Shown in pieces: positions 16,406-31,862 of a DNA stretch of 64,000 nucleotides. Position numbers and translations under genes: made by a program. The DNA is taken from positions 32,001 to 96,000 of the forward strand of contig RDOB01000003.1 in NCBI GenBank assembly GCA_011364965.1, read 5' to 3'. Within the stretch, counting starts at the first letter, position 1. Each line of letters opens with the position of its first letter. The DNA is from Candidatus Heimdallarchaeota archaeon. GTDB lineage: Archaea; Asgardarchaeota; Heimdallarchaeia; Hodarchaeales; Hodarchaeaceae. The notes under the pieces were generated by a model. It worked only from the letters and a program-made list of their open reading frames with translations, searched no databases and was not told the DNA's origin.

Positions 16406-18532
16406 ATGAAAAAGAAAAACTTGCTTTTTGCTCTGGTTTTCGTAGCGTTCTTCCTTCCATTATATAGCAGTGCTGTACAATCAGTACCTGCTGCTGTTGA
16501 ACCTCTTATTTCAGTGCATGCAATTGCCCCAACAAATAACCCACAACGAGCAATGTATGCCCAGTTAATGGAACAAGAGCTACCAAAAATCGGAATTGAA
16601 GTAGAATTGGATCTTATCAGCTGGCCTGCACTTCTCACCCGCGCTGCAACTAGTGAGGTTGGTGTTTATTCAGAAGGTGGATATGATATTGCACACTTTG
16701 GAATGTCATTAGGATCACCAGCAGGACATCCAGGTGATTCTATGCTTGGAGTATACCATAGTGGCGCAGTTCCGCCAAATGGATTTAACTGTATGTATTG
16801 GTCAGTAAATCCAGGACACAACAACCTTCGTGCTGCTGAATCAGATGCTTTGATTGAAGCTATCAACAGTGAGTTGAATCAGACCTTATCTCGAGAAATG
16901 CTGTTAGAATGGCAGGAGGTCTACTACGACGTTCTTCCAAACATTATGGTTTATAATCTATTAGAAGTTCATGCTGTTTCAAAAGGTATTAGTGGTTATG
17001 ATCCTGTCAATCCCGCGTTATATTCAATTGAAGACATTCGAATGGATCCTGCTACTTATACTGGTACTATGGGAACAGTAGTGTTAGCTTCCTCTGCTCC
17101 TCCAACTAATTTCCTTCAAATGATCATAAATGATGTATATTCACAATATTGCGCTAATCCAGCAATGGATGCCCTAGTAGGTTTAACTCCTTCTAGAACC
17201 GTTGTTCTACCAACAGGCACAACTTATGAAGATTGGATGATGGCTAATTATGGCGTAGATCTTCCACTCCAAAACTATCCTCGTATTGCCCAAGACCTTG
17301 GATTTTACAGTGAGGATGGTCTTAACTTCACTGTTTCCCTAAGAGATGACGCTTATTGGCACGATGGTGAACAAGTAGACGCTTGGGATGTAGCGTTTAC
17401 CTATCAAGCAGTTCTTACACCTGATGTAGGTTCAGATGAATATAGCAACTTAAGACTTGCCCTTGGAGATGATGATAAAGAAAATCTTCACGGTAATTAT
17501 TCTTTCCAGGTTAAAGATCTTGATGATAATGGCCACTTTGAAACCATTAGCATCATCTTTGATATTACATATGCACCATTCCTTACTGACTACTTCGGTT
17601 ATGCACTTCATCCAGAACATATTCTTGGAGATCCTGTAGATCATGGATTCCTAGTTGATGGCACTTTTGATCCTAATACAAAATGGCAAGTTGCCCCAGC
17701 TGAATGGAGTTCCCACTCATATAATACAGCTGATCCAAGTGATCCTGGTGGTCTAGAAGGACCTATTGGTTGCGGTTCATTAGTTTTCTACGACTTTGAT
17801 CAAACCAGCAGAGTCTTAGAACTTCGCAAATTCGAGAACATTAAATGGGATCACGGTACTGGCACTTGGTTAGAAGGAGAGACAGCTTCTGGAGGTTTGT
17901 CTCACTACCTAGTTGCGGATGGTGAATTAGATGACATGGCAGATGTTGCTAAAGTTATCCCAGCTAGCTTAGATGCAGCCCTAGCTGAAATGAAGGCCGG
18001 AGATGTAAATATACTTGACCATCAATTCAGTATGGGAAATATCTTTGACGAGCTCCAAGCAGAACCAACTATTGTCACTGCTCAAACCCCAGCAACTGGT
18101 TGGCAATGCATTTATCCAAACCCAAAGCAACCTGATCTTGCTAAGAAAGGTGTCCGTCACGCAATTTCTCATGTAGTACCACGTGATGATATTGTAAACT
18201 ATCTTTTTGATGGACTCGCATTCCATGGCTACACACCGGTACCTATCACTGGCTGGGGAGCTATGTCCACAACCGATTGGTTAGCAATGAAGAAAAACAT
18301 TGAAGCATCAAACGGAACAAAACTCCTTACGGGTGAAACTACATTCTATGACTCCTACGATGTTGAACTGGCATTAGACTGGCTCGAGACCGAAGATTAT
18401 GATGTTGGCCCATGGAGAGACGGTGGCGCTGGATTAACAGAACCAGGTGGTGCTATCCCCGGTTATGAATTCAGTGTTGCGCTTCTCGCAATATTGGGAT
18501 CAATTTTCATTATTAAGAAACGAAGAAGATAA
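16406..18532 (+). CDS. Peptide ABC transporter substrate-binding protein (SBP family 5, DppA/OppA-like), circularly permuted, PGF-CTERM-like anchor
   Basis: SEDGLNFTVSLRDDAYWHDGEQVDAWDVAFTY, VRHAISHVVPRDDIV, ELPKIGIEVEL; signal peptide; C-terminal IPGYEF-TM-KKRRR. Confidence 0.88.
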   Translation: MKKKNLLFALVFVAFFLPLYSSAVQSVPAAVEPLISVHAIAPTNNPQRAMYAQLMEQELPKIGIEVELDLISWPALLTRAATSEVGVYSEGGYDIAHFGMSLGSPAGHPGDSMLGVYHSGAVPPNGFNCMYWSVNPGHNNLRAAESDALIEAINSELNQTLSREMLLEWQEVYYDVLPNIMVYNLLEVHAVSKGISGYDPVNPALYSIEDIRMDPATYTGTMGTVVLASSAPPTNFLQMIINDVYSQYCANPAMDALVGLTPSRTVVLPTGTTYEDWMMANYGVDLPLQNYPRIAQDLGFYSEDGLNFTVSLRDDAYWHDGEQVDAWDVAFTYQAVLTPDVGSDEYSNLRLALGDDDKENLHGNYSFQVKDLDDNGHFETISIIFDITYAPFLTDYFGYALHPEHILGDPVDHGFLVDGTFDPNTKWQVAPAEWSSHSYNTADPSDPGGLEGPIGCGSLVFYDFDQTSRVLELRKFENIKWDHGTGTWLEGETASGGLSHYLVADGELDDMADVAKVIPASLDAALAEMKAGDVNILDHQFSMGNIFDELQAEPTIVTAQTPATGWQCIYPNPKQPDLAKKGVRHAISHVVPRDDIVNYLFDGLAFHGYTPVPITGWGAMSTTDWLAMKKNIEASNGTKLLTGETTFYDSYDVELALDWLETEDYDVGPWRDGGAGLTEPGGAIPGYEFSVALLAILGSIFIIKKRRR

Positions 18533-18916: not shown

Positions 18917-19795
18917 ATGAATAAAAAGATTCTATTTGGAGTCGGCATTCTGACTCTTATCATTCTTTTACAAAGTATGCCTGCCTCCAGTGCTGTCACA
19001 GTCGAGTCTGTTAAATGGCACCCAGCAGTCAAAGAAGATGCCGTTTATTCTTGGTCGATTGACACAATCAACGCTTCTGGTGAAACCTCATGGGATTGGG
19101 GTTGGGCCAATAATGTCACTCTGAAACAGGGTGAAAAAATTACTCTAGAGTGGACCGCGGACCCCGATGAGGAAACTGCAATAGCAACCCTTGGACCAAT
19201 TATCTACACAGGCATTGTAACAAAAGTTGGATCTCATACTATGAACTTCACCGCTGGTGAGACTACTTTCAATTTCCTTCAGGTACCTGTTTATATTCGA
19301 AATGATCCGACTGGTTTAAATGCTCTTGAAGCAGGTTTAAACTCTCTTGAACGATTATGGATTAATAGCTTTGGTTTACCAACTGGAGCATCATCCGCTG
19401 ATCGTCGCTGGAGCATTGGGATGCATGGCGCAACTCTTCTAAACACAGGGGAAAATGGAACTAAAGGGGAAACCATTATAGGCGAAATTAGCGGTGGTAC
19501 ACCCGCACAACATTATGTGTTCGACATCGAATATGATTCAGTCACTGGATTTGTAACATCATTAAAATACCCCTCAGCAGGTAATCCTGATGATCCAACA
19601 ATTCCAATTGCTAATAGCACATTTGGTATTGTCTCGGGTCTTGATGAACTTGTCATCACATTTGATGGTGAAATGAAAGATGTTTATGCGGAAGCAGAGT
19701 GGGGTAAGGCCAAAGCTGCTCCAGGTTTTGAAGCTCCTATAGCAATTATTACACTAGTTATGTTTGGAGCACTTATTCGAAAACGCAAGAAATAA
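18917..19795 (+). CDS. Secreted surface protein with PGF-CTERM-like anchor
   Basis: Signal peptide; C-terminal APGFE-hydrophobic-RKRKK; GGAGG upstream. Confidence 0.8.
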   Translation: MNKKILFGVGILTLIILLQSMPASSAVTVESVKWHPAVKEDAVYSWSIDTINASGETSWDWGWANNVTLKQGEKITLEWTADPDEETAIATLGPIIYTGIVTKVGSHTMNFTAGETTFNFLQVPVYIRNDPTGLNALEAGLNSLERLWINSFGLPTGASSADRRWSIGMHGATLLNTGENGTKGETIIGEISGGTPAQHYVFDIEYDSVTGFVTSLKYPSAGNPDDPTIPIANSTFGIVSGLDELVITFDGEMKDVYAEAEWGKAKAAPGFEAPIAIITLVMFGALIRKRKK

Positions 19796-22583: not shown

Positions 22584-23321
22584 TTATAACGTAACATTCA
22601 AAATTGTGAAGTAAAGATTAAATGAAAGATGTAGAAAAATTGCAGGAATTATTGATCGTGATCTCAAGGTAATGAAGGTATTAAATAAACCTAATAGAAA
22701 AACTAGAACATATAATACAAAATTTCCTACAAGAAAATACTTTAAGTGATAAATTGGGCCAAACCATAATGAAACAAACAATAAACTTTGAAGTTGAGCC
22801 TCCTTATAAGAGGATGGATTCCTTTTTAATAAAAAGAATAGAATTTGAACTAGGAAGATTGACCGAAATTCAAGTTCTTCGATTAAACCTAAAAATAGAG
22901 GGAAAAAAAGACGTTCAGGCCAAGCATCAACAGGAAATAGAATTACTGTATTGATTTTATCAATGGAATATAAAAGAATAGCGAATAAAATAACAATGCT
23001 CCCAATAATCATAACTAGGATATAATACGGAGCAATTTTATTTAAAATGAAATATTGTTTGAAATAAGATCGATTACACCAAAAGAAAAGCATGACAGGA
23101 ACTGCCCCGATCAATAATCCAAGCTCTGTACCTGCTTTATCTGCAAGCATATGTTCTTCTTGAGGATATAATAAGAAGAACACTTGACGAGTGATCCAAT
23201 AATATACTTTAAAAGTTCTTAATATGATTAAGATAAGGATAATTTTTATTTTCAGAGGCCAAGAGTCAAAAAGCGGAGGAATTTCCGATTCATATTGAGC
23301 CAGCAAAAAATGTAACTCCAA
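22584..23321 (-). CDS. CPBP/Abi (Rce1-like) intramembrane protease
   Basis: IEELEFR, WFGPIYH and SIIPAIFLHLSFN motifs. Confidence 0.85.
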   Translation of the reverse strand: MELHFLLAQYESEIPPLFDSWPLKIKIILILIILRTFKVYYWITRQVFFLLYPQEEHMLADKAGTELGLLIGAVPVMLFFWCNRSYFKQYFILNKIAPYYILVMIIGSIVILFAILLYSIDKINTVILFPVDAWPERLFFPLFLGLIEELEFRSIFLVQILFFLLKRNPSSYKEAQLQSLLFVSLWFGPIYHLKYFLVGNFVLYVLVFLLGLFNTFITLRSRSIIPAIFLHLSFNLYFTILNVTL

Positions 23322-23357: not shown

Positions 23358-24938
23358 TTAAGAAGCTTCTCCTCTACTAGAATAAATTTCCTTCGAGAAC
23401 CAACACGCTACTTGATGTCCTGGAAAAACTTCGTCAAGAGTAGGTTCCTGATTGCATTTGTCCTTTGCATAATTGCAGCGATCTTTAAATCGACAACCAG
23501 GTTGAGGATTAATTGGCGTGGGGACATCTCCTCGTAAAATGATTCTTTCTTTCCTCGTTTTGGGATCAGGGATTGGGACAGCAGACATTAGGGCTTCAGT
23601 ATAGGGATGTAGAGGGCGAAGAAATAGTTCATCAGTGTCAGCTATTTCCATCATCTTTCCTACATACATCACTGCAACACGATCTGAAACATGACGGATG
23701 ACACTTAAATCGTGAGCTACTACGATATATGTTAAACCTAAGGTATTTTGAAGATCATCTAAAAGATTTAATATCTGTGCACGAATCGAGACATCCAAAG
23801 CTGACACAGGCTCATCTGCAACAATTATTTGTGGATTCACGGACAGAGCACGAGCAATCCCAATTCTCTGGCGTTGACCTCCGGAAAATTCATGAGGATA
23901 TCGATAAATATGGAATGGGGCCAAACCAACGAGATCCATAAGCTCAAGTACTTTCTGTTCTTTTTCCTTTTGATTATAAGCTAGACCATACAGATCTAGT
24001 CCTTCACTAATGATGTCATATACGGTCATTCGGGGATTTAATGAGGAATATGGATCTTGAAATATTAATTGAATATATTTTCTAAATGCACGCATTTTTT
24101 TGTCTAATGGTTCGTTTTTGTCAATTCTTTGCCAAACCACTCCTCCAATGATTAGTATAGCTGATCCAAGTAAGGTAATTATTAGCGTTGGTATATCAGG
24201 AAAGTACGGACGTCCACCAATGATTATAACCAAGAACATTAAAACCCATTCGCTTAGAACCCCGAAGACGGCAATAATAACCCCAGTTTTAGTGGTTGGA
24301 AAATCTGGTGGTCTTTTGTTCAATAAATGATATAACGGGGAAGCTAAAAACATACCTGTTCCTATGAAAGTTGTTATAGTGAAAGTAAATATCCAGATAA
24401 ATAGTAATGCTACGATGAAGGAAAGATTAGGCCAATTTCGCGTTAAACTAGCAAAGCTAATTAGCTCTAATTCCGAAGTAGCATCATTGAATATGTAAGC
24501 ACCAGAGATAATAACGGAGCCCTCATCAACGAGGGAGTTTAAGAAGGTTCCATTAATACCTGGAATGAATCTTGCAGGAATGAGAAAAGTAAGAAATAAA
24601 AAAGCGAGTCCAGTTAAAATCATAAGAATACTATAAACAAAATTTGTCCGAACAAATTCCTTACCCATTCGGGTGACATCACGATCGTTGATAATGACAC
24701 TTCCGGACGTAGGTTCTAGTAGATGAAGAAGCATTCGTCCGGTCGTAGTTTTCCCACAACCACTTTCACCCACGAGTCCAAATGTTTCTCCTTTGAATAC
24801 ATCAAATGTAATATCATCAACGGCATGAACATTTCCAACAACTGATTGTCTAATTATTCCCTCTCTAATTGGGAAAAGTTTCACAAGGTTCTTAACACTA
24901 ATGATAGGGGTTTTTGTTAAATTTGCCATTTTTTTCAC
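23358..24938 (-). CDS. dppF: Oligopeptide/dipeptide ABC ATPase (DppF/OppF) with internal 4-TM insertion
   Basis: [48 protein letters not shown] and a C-terminal Cys-rich oligo_HPY tail; ~180-aa hydrophobic insertion. Confidence 0.9.
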   Translation of the reverse strand: MKKMANLTKTPIISVKNLVKLFPIREGIIRQSVVGNVHAVDDITFDVFKGETFGLVGESGCGKTTTGRMLLHLLEPTSGSVIINDRDVTRMGKEFVRTNFVYSILMILTGLAFLFLTFLIPARFIPGINGTFLNSLVDEGSVIISGAYIFNDATSELELISFASLTRNWPNLSFIVALLFIWIFTFTITTFIGTGMFLASPLYHLLNKRPPDFPTTKTGVIIAVFGVLSEWVLMFLVIIIGGRPYFPDIPTLIITLLGSAILIIGGVVWQRIDKNEPLDKKMRAFRKYIQLIFQDPYSSLNPRMTVYDIISEGLDLYGLAYNQKEKEQKVLELMDLVGLAPFHIYRYPHEFSGGQRQRIGIARALSVNPQIIVADEPVSALDVSIRAQILNLLDDLQNTLGLTYIVVAHDLSVIRHVSDRVAVMYVGKMMEIADTDELFLRPLHPYTEALMSAVPIPDPKTRKERIILRGDVPTPINPQPGCRFKDRCNYAKDKCNQEPTLDEVFPGHQVACWFSKEIYSSRGEAS

Positions 24939-24942
24939 CTTT

Positions 24943-25929
24943 TTACAATGTTGCTGCGTAGTGACAAAATGAAAAATGTGAAGGTTCGATTTCTACATAA
25001 GGAGGTACTTGAGTAGAGCACTTCTCTGTCGCATAAGGACATCGTGGATGAAAACGACATCCACTTGGTGGAGTTATAAGGTTGGGTACAGTACCTCTGA
25101 TGACTCCAAGTCGCGAAATTTTCTTATCCATACGTGGAATAGAACTAAGCAACGCTCTGGTGTAAGGATGGTCAGGTTTGTCATAGATAGTATTAACATC
25201 TGTATATTCAACTATATTACCTGCATACATCACTGCTACATTATCAGCAATCTCTGCTATGACGCCAAGGTTATGTGTAATATAAAGAACAGCCATATTT
25301 AAATCTTCTTGAAGATCTTTAATTAAATCCAATACTTGTGCTTGAATAGTGACATCAAGAGCTGTTGTAGGTTCATCTGCTATAAGCATCTGTGGATTAC
25401 AAGACAATGCCATTGCAATCATCACCCTTTGTCTCATTCCACCAGAAAATAGATGTGGATAGTCATTAATTCTACGTCTAGCTTCAGGGATACCGACCAT
25501 TTGCATTAATTCTATCCCTTTTTCTAGAGCTTCATCTTCTGAGACATCTTGATGGAGTTTGATATTCTCAAGAATTTGATTTTTTACTGTAAAAACTGGA
25601 TTTAATGAAGTCATTGGATCTTGGAAGATCATTGAAATCTCATTTCCTCTAATTTGCCTCATTCTTTCTTCTGAAAGTTCCAGCAAATCCTCTCCATTAA
25701 ACATCACCTTACCTCCAACAATTTTCCCTGGTGGAGTAGGTACTAGTTTTAAAATCGACAAGGAAGTGATAGTTTTTCCGCATCCACTTTCCCCCACCAA
25801 GCCCAAGACTTCTCCACGATGTAGCTTGAAACTAACATCATCAACTGCCTTTACCACACCATCCTCGGTGAAGAATTGCGTTTTTAAATGTTCTAACTCT
25901 AATAATGGTTCTTCTGCAAATGTCATCAA
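24943..25929 (-). CDS. dppD: Oligopeptide/dipeptide ABC ATPase (DppD/OppD)
   Basis: [43 protein letters not shown]. Confidence 0.95.
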
Positions 25930-27665: not shown

Positions 27666-28787
27666 CTAATAACGAATTCTAGGATCCAAAAATGCGTATG
27701 TTATATCAGTAACAAGATTTGAGACAATAACCATGATAGCGATTAACATATTTACTCCCATCATAAAATTATAATCTCTCAAATTAATACGTGCTACTGC
27801 TTCTCGTCCCAATCCAGGCCAAGAGAATACTGTTTCTGTCAAAGCTGCTCCAGCCAGCAAAAAACCGATTGAAAGTCCAACAACTGTAACAACAGGCAAT
27901 AAAGCATTCCTCAATGCGTGTTTATATATAACTAACCTTTCAGGAAGCCCTTTTGATCTTGCAGTCAGAATATAATCTTGTCTTAAAACTTCGAGCATGC
28001 TTGAACGTGTGAGGCGTAATACCAGAGCAGTTCCAGCTAATCCAAGGACTATTGTTGGCAAGATCATATGTGCTAGTTCATCAACTAGAAGTTCTATTGC
28101 TCCTTCATTCCCTGTCAAGGTATAACTTGTGGAACCAAGAGCTGGAAAGCGAATCCCGAAAAATATCTTATAATCAGAGAAAAGTAGAATGAACATAATT
28201 CCTGTCCAAAAAACAGGCATCGAAACACCAAATAAAGCCAAAGTTGTCCCTAAATTGTCTAATCTTGAGTAAGGTTTTCTTGCGGAAAATATTCCCAAAG
28301 GAATGCCAATCATTAGACTCATTAGCAACGATGCTAATTGTAATTTTATTGTTTCCCACGCAAGCGCTCCAATTATTGAATTAATGCTTGATCCTGTAAA
28401 GGATCGTCCCATATTCCCAAAAATGAACCCTGGTTCAAAATTAGAATCAGGAACTCCAAAATCAAGGACTCCTGTATCTTGAATAAACCTAAAAGGAATA
28501 AAAATAACAAAATTCGCAAATTCCTCAAAGAAATTCCCCCAATCCCCTACTTCGGAATTACGTCCTAAGAGCCAAAGGATATACTGTTCCATTGGTTCAC
28601 GATCTAAACCTAGATTATGTCTGATATTTGCAGCCTCTTCTGGAGACATAGTCGGATTTGTAAGCCTGAGGACGTCCACGTAGTCCGCTGGCGCGTTAAT
28701 CATTAAGGCAAATAGGATAATGGAAATTCCTAAGAATAATGGTATACTAAACAATAATCGTCTAATGACGTAATTTCTCAAACTCAT
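27666..28787 (-). CDS. dppB: Oligopeptide ABC permease DppB/OppB
   Basis: YVIRRLL, RSSMLEVLRQDYILTARSKGL, KHALRNA, LDPRIRY. Confidence 0.95.
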   Translation of the reverse strand: MSLRNYVIRRLLFSIPLFLGISIILFALMINAPADYVDVLRLTNPTMSPEEAANIRHNLGLDREPMEQYILWLLGRNSEVGDWGNFFEEFANFVIFIPFRFIQDTGVLDFGVPDSNFEPGFIFGNMGRSFTGSSINSIIGALAWETIKLQLASLLMSLMIGIPLGIFSARKPYSRLDNLGTTLALFGVSMPVFWTGIMFILLFSDYKIFFGIRFPALGSTSYTLTGNEGAIELLVDELAHMILPTIVLGLAGTALVLRLTRSSMLEVLRQDYILTARSKGLPERLVIYKHALRNALLPVVTVVGLSIGFLLAGAALTETVFSWPGLGREAVARINLRDYNFMMGVNMLIAIMVIVSNLVTDITYAFLDPRIRY

Positions 28788-30578: not shown

Positions 30579-31862
30579 ATGGACACTATAAGAGAGAAGT
30601 TGCAGATAACTGAAAAGAATTTATTGGAAATAAATAAATTCTTGTTAAACAAAAATAATCCTCTAATTAATGATTTATTTGAGGTCATTGACAAGTATGG
30701 AGGCATTAACGAGATTAACCGAAAAGCTAAAGAAGCTAGGCAGCTGGAAGGATTAATCGATCGGTTAGAAAGAAAGCAACCTGATTATGTTAAGGATCTT
30801 AATTGGTTAATAAATAAACGTGATCAAGAAGCCTTTATAAGTATAGATGAATATAGAAAAAAGGTTTTAGAAGAAAAATATGCATCGACTACATTTGATG
30901 ACTCATTCGCTGTCACATTAGAACTCTCTGCATGTCAATATTTCCCATTTCTCATCGTTGGAGCTCAGCAGGCTATTGAAAAAGCAGAACTGATGCCCGG
31001 TCGAATCATTCGTGTTCGTAGAATGAAAGAACAAGAGGAAGATGGGGATCTCCTAGCTATGGCGGCAGCAATGCAGATAATTGGAGCCTCTTATGTTGAA
31101 ACACTTGATACAAAAGGAACGAGTCCTGGTCCTGATGGTGCTCCTGTAAATATTCATCTTGGAGGCCCAGAAACTATTACAGGATATTTTGGGGGAGTAG
31201 GGCAACCAAATACATTTGCCTTGAAATGGATCGATGAATTCTTATATTATTATACTAATTATGGAGTTAAACAAGTCCTGAATATTAACCCAGGGACAGT
31301 TCTTTTGGGTTACATGCTTTATAAACTTGGAATCGATAATGAATTCAAAATCTCGGTTTATATGGGTAACGATAATCCTTATAGCTGCTTATGGACCTTA
31401 ATGACAGCAAAGCTCTTTTCTCGAGATGATGGAACAAGCCCTTTAATTGGATTTAATCTTTCAAACGCGGTAGATAACACCACACTAGAGCTTAGTGCTT
31501 ATATTCGAAAGGAGTTTGGATTTGAAGACGTCGTTCGCTTAGAACATCATATCATTGAAACAATCAAATCAATTGTTCGGCAACCTTATGACCGGACAGA
31601 GGAATTAATAGAGCTTGCAAAACGCGTGAAGAATATTTCAGCTAAGCATGAGGGTGGACCTGTAGAAATCGATAGTAAACGTGAACACCCTACAGATATT
31701 CTAGATTATTTCAGAGCAAAAGATGAAATTATCAAAGCAGGTCATTGGGAATATTTGAAGATTAATTATTTAGATCGACATGCAGCTGTAAATGCAACCG
31801 CAAAAGCTCTTACCGAGAATGGTATTAGTGTCATTTCTGCTCAGAAATTACACCACCATTAA
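30579..31862 (+). CDS. Conserved hypothetical enzyme-like protein (possible TIM barrel)
   Basis: 427 aa, Gly-rich conserved-looking motifs (ETLDTKGT, HLGGPETITGYFGG, FKISVYMGNDNP, KHEGG); first gene of an amino-acid metabolic operon. Confidence 0.75.
   Translation: MDTIREKLQITEKNLLEINKFLLNKNNPLINDLFEVIDKYGGINEINRKAKEARQLEGLIDRLERKQPDYVKDLNWLINKRDQEAFISIDEYRKKVLEEKYASTTFDDSFAVTLELSACQYFPFLIVGAQQAIEKAELMPGRIIRVRRMKEQEEDGDLLAMAAAMQIIGASYVETLDTKGTSPGPDGAPVNIHLGGPETITGYFGGVGQPNTFALKWIDEFLYYYTNYGVKQVLNINPGTVLLGYMLYKLGIDNEFKISVYMGNDNPYSCLWTLMTAKLFSRDDGTSPLIGFNLSNAVDNTTLELSAYIRKEFGFEDVVRLEHHIIETIKSIVRQPYDRTEELIELAKRVKNISAKHEGGPVEIDSKREHPTDILDYFRAKDEIIKAGHWEYLKINYLDRHAAVNATAKALTENGISVISAQKLHHH

Follow-up and report, generated by a model that had tools for sequence, protein, structure and literature searches.

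Family-5 (cluster C) substrate-binding proteins (SBPs) are among the most studied receptors of ATP-binding cassette (ABC) transporters and are widely used as biosensor scaffolds. The canonical members, represented by E. coli DppA (1dpp/1dpe/8z1z), B. subtilis AppA (1xoc), C. jejuni NikZ (4oet) and GsiB/YliB (1uqw), have a three-domain, two-lobed fold, share the motifs WHDG, a VRxA..-type helix and a KIGI strand, and work beside translocators of the DppBCDF type, whose ATPases are of the oligo_HPY type. Among ABC binding proteins, a single published case of natural permutation was found, and it belongs to another cluster: TpMglB-2 (Tp0684) of Treponema pallidum, a circularly permuted glucose-binding protein, is the founding member of 'Cluster Bc' (PMC4990184). 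A literature search for circular permutation in family-5, OppA, DppA and SBP proteins, with many subscription journals outside its coverage, returned nothing on the family. The protein described here is encoded in a 64,000-nucleotide stretch of Candidatus Heimdallarchaeota archaeon (GCA_011364965.1, contig RDOB01000003.1, positions 32,001 to 96,000), hereafter the window, which is C11:32001-96000 of a 2.97-Mb, 87%-complete genome. The open reading frame (ORF) 16406-18532 (+) encodes 708 amino acids (aa) plus stop (P0001). It has the motifs and the kind of genomic partner of the canonical proteins and, by prediction, their fold, and it carries the conserved segments in another order.

We put at about 85% the probability that this protein is a functional, surface-tethered family-5 (cluster C) ABC SBP and a natural circular permutant. 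Its top named relative is a protein of Candidatus Hodarchaeum mangrovi with 83% identity, and further named matches come from Hodarchaeales, Heimdallarchaeota and other Asgard metagenome-assembled genomes (MAGs).

Order of the family-5 segments

The Pfam profile SBP_bac_5 (PF00496) matches the protein with an E value of 1.5e-33 (116.8 bits, cut-off 32.4), in a single run over residues 291-633 that takes in profile positions 3-267 of 368 only. The order of the remaining parts is seen in searches of the PDB sequences with HMMER. With a 36-sequence family profile, residues 36-216 align on residues 360-518 of Bacillus subtilis AppA, which is its C-terminal end, while residues 287-411 align on AppA 60-166 and residues 488-622 on AppA 196-319; a search with the single protein gave the same swapped order. 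A profile of the N-terminal module alone (residues 30-218), searched against 177,635 PDB sequences, matches nine solved chains with E values of 2.8e-4 to 9.7e-3. All nine are family-5 SBPs, and all the matches are confined to the last third of the SBP chain. With the NCBIfam GsiB model, residues 37-211 of two orthologues fall on positions 347-509 of 512. A canonical hidden Markov model (HMM) of 530 positions, built from 70 canonical relatives, places residues 37-202 on HMM positions 370-514 (45.8 bits), residues 288-408 on positions 78-178 (46.0 bits) and residues 523-619 on positions 235-329 (36.3 bits).

The protein is a cluster C (family-5) member that matches the family profile and departs from it in chain order: in place of the canonical N-to-C order, the equivalent of DppA 340-507 comes first and that of DppA 1-345 second. 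The initial annotation, made from the sequence alone, had described just such an arrangement, with the normally C-terminal segment at the start and the N-terminal motifs after it, and the ORF, the order and the tail all agree with that description. Aligned separately to profiles and to the DppA and AppA structures, the two halves give complementary, swapped ranges. A collinear full-length alignment to DppA or OppA, which the same annotation had named as contrary evidence, was looked for and not found.

Predicted structure and position of the cut

The AlphaFold2 model built from the family alignment has a predicted local distance difference test (pLDDT) value of 90.3 and a predicted template modelling score (pTM) of 0.83. 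It is a single compact body, and the join region is ordered, with pLDDT values of 90-96 across blocks 201-230. In structural alignment with VIA-align, residues 223-670 superimpose on DppA (1dpp) 1-345 with a Z score of 20.6 over 325 aligned residues. For the N module (residues 222-670) the best chain is AppA (Z 22.5), and the Z scores against DppA, AppA and NikZ range from 20 to 22.5 with about 320-330 residues aligned. Residues 30-214, the C module, reach a pLDDT of 78 when folded alone and align on DppA 340-507 (Z 8.5, 160 residues); against the same three structures this predicted model gives Z scores of 8-9.5. The two DppA ranges are complementary, with nothing duplicated and nothing missing, and the join between them takes up 7-8 residues.

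A sequential Foldseek search against the PDB gave no collinear full-length SBP match, the query-normalised TM-score reaching only 0.24-0.37. The matched solved family-5 SBPs are all mutually collinear and none is collinear with the protein. Full-length collinear structural matches are other predicted permuted proteins only. An archaeal ESM Atlas cluster (175 members, 92% Archaea) is collinear with the SBP model at TM-scores of 0.69/0.83 over 518 residues, and a Bacillota cluster (100 members) at 0.56/0.64 over 499 residues.

The cut sits in lobe 2 (domain III), in the loop after a 'dpekA..LL'-type helix. At this place the canonical proteins have the helix, a variable surface loop and the strand preceding the KIGI helix-strand unit. 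The new N-terminus is this strand (residues 35-42) and the new C-terminus is this helix (residues 653-661, ELALDWLE), after which come the stalk and the anchor; about 8 residues bridge the old termini, which both belong to domain I. The C module completes lobe 2 (domain III), makes the second of the hinge crossings and supplies domain I with its last strand. The N module comprises domains I and II, the first of the hinge crossings and the beginning of domain III, and it is here that the subfamily-specific insertions sit. Ahead of both, residues 5-27 form a hydrophobic signal segment, modelled as a low-confidence helix at residues 2-24 (Table 1).

In the path suggested by the model, the chain would start in the middle of lobe 2 (around DppA 340), reach the old C-terminus in domain I, pass through the 8-residue join to the old N-terminus and build domains I and II, before re-entering domain III and stopping at the canonical surface loop, around DppA 345. 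The two-lobed fold and the hinges would be unchanged, and the termini alone would shift from lobe 1 to lobe 2. Since both hinge crossings are kept in the model, Venus-flytrap closure should be unaffected.

Table 1. Features of the permuted SBP and of the neighbouring genes, in window positions.
Feature	Position	Strand	Basis or remark
Circularly permuted family-5 SBP, whole ORF (P0001)	16406..18532	+	Sequence profiles, AlphaFold2 model, structural alignment
Residues 1-29, N-terminal Sec-type signal peptide without lipobox cysteine, and short spacer	16406..16492	+	
Residues 30-214, C module, equivalent to canonical DppA 340-507	16493..17047	+	Sequence and structure
Residues 215-221, new join of old C-terminus to old N-terminus	17048..17068	+	Between aligned modules
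Residues 222-670, N module, equivalent to canonical DppA 1-345	17069..18415	+	Structural alignment, profiles
Residues 671-682, Gly/Pro-rich flexible stalk	18416..18451	+	pLDDT <50 at residues 676-686
Residues 683-708, Heimdall-CTERM-type sorting/anchor signal: IPGYEF, transmembrane helix, KKRRR	18452..18529	+	
g292, no known family, signal peptide, Heimdall-CTERM-type tail	18917..19795	+	NF045529, 22.6 bits
g204, no known family, C-terminal transmembrane helix	19883..20497	+	Syntenic
dppF, 526 aa, membrane insert	23358-24938	-	
dppD	24943-25929	-	
dppC, 567 aa, extracytoplasmic insert of ~285 aa	25943-27646	-	
dppB	27666-28787	-	

Conservation and selection

At E values of 2.7e-91 or better the protein has relatives in 61 clusters, nearly all of them collinear with it over at least 86% of the query and a few of them fragments, and 45 columns are invariant in the alignment of 36 sequences. 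The ratio of nonsynonymous to synonymous substitution rates (dN/dS) was estimated against two orthologues at 80-83% identity, for which dS is near saturation and the values are rough. It is 0.09-0.13 for the whole SBP gene, 0.06-0.10 for the C module, 0.10-0.14 for the N module, 0.10-0.17 for the join (residues 205-235) and 0.02-0.19 for the tail. By these comparisons the gene is intact, conserved and under purifying selection. Misassembly as the source of the layout is excluded, for over 60 clusters drawn from independent assemblies have it too, and one of these assemblies is a closed genome of 4.9 Mb.

Binding site and ligand

E. coli DppA holds the carboxylate and amino groups of its dipeptide through R383 and D436 (PMC12136057). 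In an HMM-guided alignment, approximate in the loops, the corresponding positions of the protein are Pro42, which lies within the conserved APT(N/S)NP motif, and Gly103, a position occupied by Gly, Ser or Asp across the subfamily. The permuted relative P0122, from a Bacillota MAG, keeps the clamps as R43 and D105. Against the NCBIfam equivalogs for DppA, OppA and NikA, the protein scores far under every cut-off. Because R383 and D436 are replaced, the subfamily has probably left the DppA-type specificity, and its ligand need not be a peptide; the name 'peptide-binding protein' of the initial annotation has no support from a site in which both clamps are replaced.

Genomic context and the likely translocator

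The dppBCDF genes of the window, with ATPases of the oligo_HPY type, lie 4.8 kb from the SBP gene, and the protein would deliver its ligand to the DppBCDF-type translocator encoded about 5 kb away. Canonical family-5 SBPs number three in the genome: two head dpp operons with a DppC of normal length, and the third lies a few kb from a dppC-like gene. Of the Dpp sets in the genome, the dppBCDF set on C11 alone has no canonical SBP beside it. The order SBP-g292-g204-(g116)-HTH-g154-...-dppF-D-C-B-g427 (HTH, helix-turn-helix) recurs at three loci, L006, L011 and L012, where the SBP is 47-58% identical. A long DppC (~565 aa) is present at all three and is a subfamily-level companion of the SBP.

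Several points weigh against reading the protein as a functional, permuted ABC SBP. Its structure, including the two-lobed, three-domain fold, is a prediction; R383 and D436 of DppA are not conserved in the subfamily; the gene stands outside the dpp operon, convergent to it and 4.8 kb away; and paralogues lie far from dpp genes, on contig C1 of the same genome and at L007, L013 and L014.

The position of the gene bears on a neighbouring explanation, in which the protein is a true permutant and is either an orphan, acting in sensing or adhesion, or the receptor of an ABC system other than the DppBCDF nearby. The gene looks monocistronic, having 297 and 384 nt of flanking sequence, and runs convergently to dpp; the C1 paralogue has no dpp genes within reach on its contig; and another paralogue, P0044, follows the genes of an FtsX/MacB-type ABC system in what looks like an operon, with dpp genes absent from the vicinity. 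We nevertheless hold this explanation to be unlikely. Three genomes retain the order of genes as far as dppB despite SBP divergence to 47-58% identity, the dppBCDF of C11 is the sole set in the genome without an adjacent SBP of its own, and the Bacillota relative P0122 is the first gene of a row SBP-dppB (326 aa)-dppC (292 aa). The SBP probably feeds the neighbouring DppBCDF translocator. A complex prediction between the mature SBP (residues 30-672) and the DppC ectodomain (residues 69-352) gave a score of 0.00, with the fold of the DppC part itself uncertain; this score says nothing about binding in either direction.

The row containing P0044 (41% identity to the SBP) occupies L007 3337-12118. 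It is tight and on a single strand, and consists of an FtsX/MacB-type permease, two ABC ATPases, a 647-aa unknown protein and, in last place, the SBP, which makes it an odd partner for a family-5 protein. The FtsX/MacB genes of the window itself were considered as a conserved partner and rejected: the FtsX and 681-aa proteins have no orthologues near the SBP at L006 or L007, where only generic ABC ATPase matches occur.

Other neighbours recur with the SBP. The product of g292, which belongs to no Pfam family and ends in an APGFEA-transmembrane-RKRKK tail, is encoded directly after the SBP at L006, L011 and L012 as well, and has a paralogue on C15 with 31% identity. The gene g427 (30579-31862, +) adjoins dppB and encodes 427 aa without a Pfam match. 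It is 74-76% identical at L006 and L011, unusually strong conservation for an unknown protein, the SBPs of these loci being only 47-48% identical. The DppF of the canonical operon on C14 (~179507-180673) aligns to residues 10-80 and 317-514 of the window DppF with a gap of ~340 nt between the aligned pieces, and by this comparison it, too, may have an insertion downstream of Walker A.

Membrane anchor and tether position

The tail of the SBP scores 20.9 bits against the NCBIfam Heimdall-CTERM model (NF045529), under the cut-off of 24 bits. The orthologue P0009 passes with 26.9 bits, and g292 and L001 reach 22.6 and 21.0 bits. The tail has the tripartite make-up of the Heimdall-CTERM and, by analogy, of the PGF-CTERM/archaeosortase signals: PGYE/PGFE, transmembrane helix and basic cluster. 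Nine ORFs in the genome, g292 and L001 among them, have tails of the type PG[FY][ED]-transmembrane helix-basic cluster. L001 is a canonical SBP paralogue on C14 with this tail at its ordinary C-terminus, in domain I; when the family profile was compared with L001 by hhalign, the shared C-terminal tail alone was aligned, the bodies being too diverged for the method. In the permuted protein the tail leaves after the helix matching DppA ~325-345, in lobe 2. Because L001 carries the same tail at the C-terminus of domain I, the tether has, in purely topological terms, been shifted by the permutation from lobe 1 to lobe 2, in line with the proposal of the initial annotation that the anchor had come to a new point on the fold. 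The Sec signal peptide would export the protein, and the PGYE-transmembrane-KKRRR tail would hold it at the membrane through a flexible stalk leaving lobe 2.

A C-terminal transmembrane helix with a basic tail is present in 120 of the 138 complete permuted proteins that share the cut point (~87%) and in 3 of 128 canonical relatives. Bacteria supply most of the canonical set, in which 65 members have a lipobox, and the canonical archaeal relatives L001 and L002 and a canonical clade nested among the permuted ones also end in C-terminal transmembrane tails. The association of tail and permutation is therefore confounded and is no proof of adaptation.

These observations bear on the idea that the permutation is adaptive, the lobe-2 tether letting the SBP dock on a translocator with a large DppC ectodomain. 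The frequency of the tail among permuted proteins (120/138 against 3/128) speaks for it, as does the long DppC, which is co-conserved with the subfamily in four genomes, the canonical operons of the window's own genome having a normal DppC; the authors of the TpMglB-2 study raised the same tether idea for their permuted cluster-B protein (PMC4990184). On the other hand, the tail association is confounded by taxonomy, canonical archaeal relatives (L001, L002 and the nested clade) share the tails, most permuted clades predate the long-DppC subfamily, the permutant from Bacillota has a DppC of ordinary length (292 aa) as its partner, and the DppF insert is missing from two of the three syntenic genomes. 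An adaptive origin of this kind is doubtful. Of the 'co-evolved, rebuilt importer' suggested at the outset, the gene order and the ~565-aa DppC stand, being kept in three genomes. The membrane insert of DppF is found at L012 only among L006, L011 and L012 and is not conserved. As the Bacillota permutant lies beside ordinary dppB (326 aa) and dppC (292 aa), permutation needs no modified permease.

An Rce1/CPBP-type intramembrane protease (22584-23321, -) is encoded directly after dppF in the window and at L012, and another lies near the paralogue at L007. CPBP proteases are sorting enzymes for some bacterial C-terminal signals, and by this analogy the protease after dppF is a candidate processing enzyme of the tails. 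No match to the exosortase/archaeosortase family PF09721 was found in the 87%-complete genome with a model of low sensitivity, which in the control picked up only one of the archaeal genomes.

Distribution and origin of the permuted order

HMMER, run exhaustively over 1.84 billion representatives, gave 1082 matches. A collection of 335 proteins was scored against the canonical HMM, and the permuted order is present in 176 of the 335. A start at HMM positions 360-369 is shared by 140 of these 176, and the ends lie mostly at positions 330-359. The clade studied here has a single common cut (HMM 354/363) and an almost universal C-terminal transmembrane tail. One cut point is common to the ~700-aa Hodarchaeales subfamily, to which the SBP belongs, and to many proteins of ~570-640 aa, whose named members come from Hodarchaeota, 'Asgardarchaeia', Heimdallarchaeota AB_125 and Heimdallarchaeaceae, with one from a Bacillota MAG. 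A homologue search with a diverse permuted alignment brings up mostly bacterial proteins of canonical order, which align over 55-60% of the query. When 200 genomes sampled from the phylum were searched with a profile, at an E value of 1e-30 or better and with five candidates per genome scored, the ~700-aa subfamily was found only in the family of the window's own genome, in five of nine other genomes.

Trees were computed from de-permuted, HMM-aligned sequences with FastTree and with quick IQ-TREE runs without approximately unbiased tests. The ~700-aa subfamily is a clade with a support of 100, and it nests in a clade of 26 permuted and four canonical rows with a support of 99. At least three changes of chain order are required among the 65 rows, all of them forced by well-supported branches, although the count is provisional. 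P0148 and P0192 form a separate small permuted lineage within canonical proteins. P0131, P0134, P0163 and P0174 form a supported clade of canonical order with C-terminal transmembrane tails inside permuted clades, an apparent return to the canonical order on the evidence of the trees.

Tandem genes and fused units occur in the wider family. At L013 (G190:C75:5868-10193), two permuted SBP genes of the subfamily stand in tandem, 34 nt apart. P0145, a metagenomic protein of 2754 aa, has four complete family-5 SBP units in one chain. P0098, also metagenomic (1524 aa), runs through HMM positions 289-526, then 47-524 and then 41-287, and represents either an intermediate in fusion or a pair of joined permutants whose cut, near HMM 288, is a different one.

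The layout may have arisen by tandem duplication, fusion and trimming in the ancestor of a mainly Asgard clade, and the raw material for such a route is visible in the tandem permuted genes, P0145 and P0098. That the SBP is instead a fusion remnant, in which a C-terminal SBP fragment was joined to a 3'-truncated neighbour and the N-terminal piece is non-functional or independent, is highly improbable, for although tandem genes and tandem fusions occur in the family (the L013 pair, P0145, P0098) and residues 30-214 alone fold only to a pLDDT of 78, the pieces are exactly complementary (DppA 340-507 plus 1-345) without overlap or gap, the whole-chain model is one compact body with a pTM of 0.83 and an ordered join, purifying selection acts equally on both pieces and the join, and the layout is kept in hundreds of proteins.

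The Bacillota permutant P0122 (L009 10001-11803) ends in a transmembrane-RRR tail instead of having a lipobox, which is unusual for Bacillota binding proteins, and its taxonomy label is the submitter's. The 100-member Bacillota cluster of the ESM Atlas supports its bacterial origin.

The mainly Asgard clade might further be seen as an undescribed topological subclass of cluster C, a 'cluster Cc' named after the model of 'Bc' for TpMglB-2, in which the permutation was fixed for the lobe-2 tether and, in Hodarchaeales, the tether geometry co-evolved with the DppC ectodomain as a docking platform, chain order being selectable, repeatedly switched and tied to the anchor. We regard this proposal as speculative and rather unlikely; if true, chain order would be a selectable trait linked to the mode of anchoring.

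Comparison with known binding proteins

The differences from the canonical cluster C proteins concern order, termini, length, binding site and anchor. The chain is rotated, starting at about DppA 340 and ending at about DppA 345; its termini and tether are in lobe 2, whereas those of the canonical proteins are in lobe 1. It is ~150 aa longer as a result of insertions, it has Pro and Gly in place of R383 and D436, and it is anchored by a C-terminal sorting signal, unlike the canonical proteins, which have a lipobox or are free in the periplasm. A cut at about DppA 340, in the loop of lobe 2, is thus compatible with the fold. Because the chain order is rotated, standard profiles cover these SBPs only in part, and domain annotation and length filters may call such permutants truncated or fused. 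The permuted SBPs are also a further instance of the heavy remodelling seen in the surface and transport proteins of Asgard archaea.

The closest parallel is TpMglB-2. It is likewise a natural, conserved permutation that keeps the fold, and for TpMglB-2 the retention of ligand binding and hinge motion is known; it too occurs mainly in organisms that tether their binding proteins, and its authors raised a tether advantage (PMC4990184). The two proteins differ in that TpMglB-2 is a cluster B, type I protein that binds sugar and has another cut point, and is a bacterial lipoprotein anchored at its N-terminus, with a solved structure and a known ligand (PMC4990184), whereas the SBP described here is known from a model. 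With its tether in lobe 2 and canonical relatives tethered in lobe 1, the archaeal clade offers a natural test of the role of tether position in docking on the translocator.

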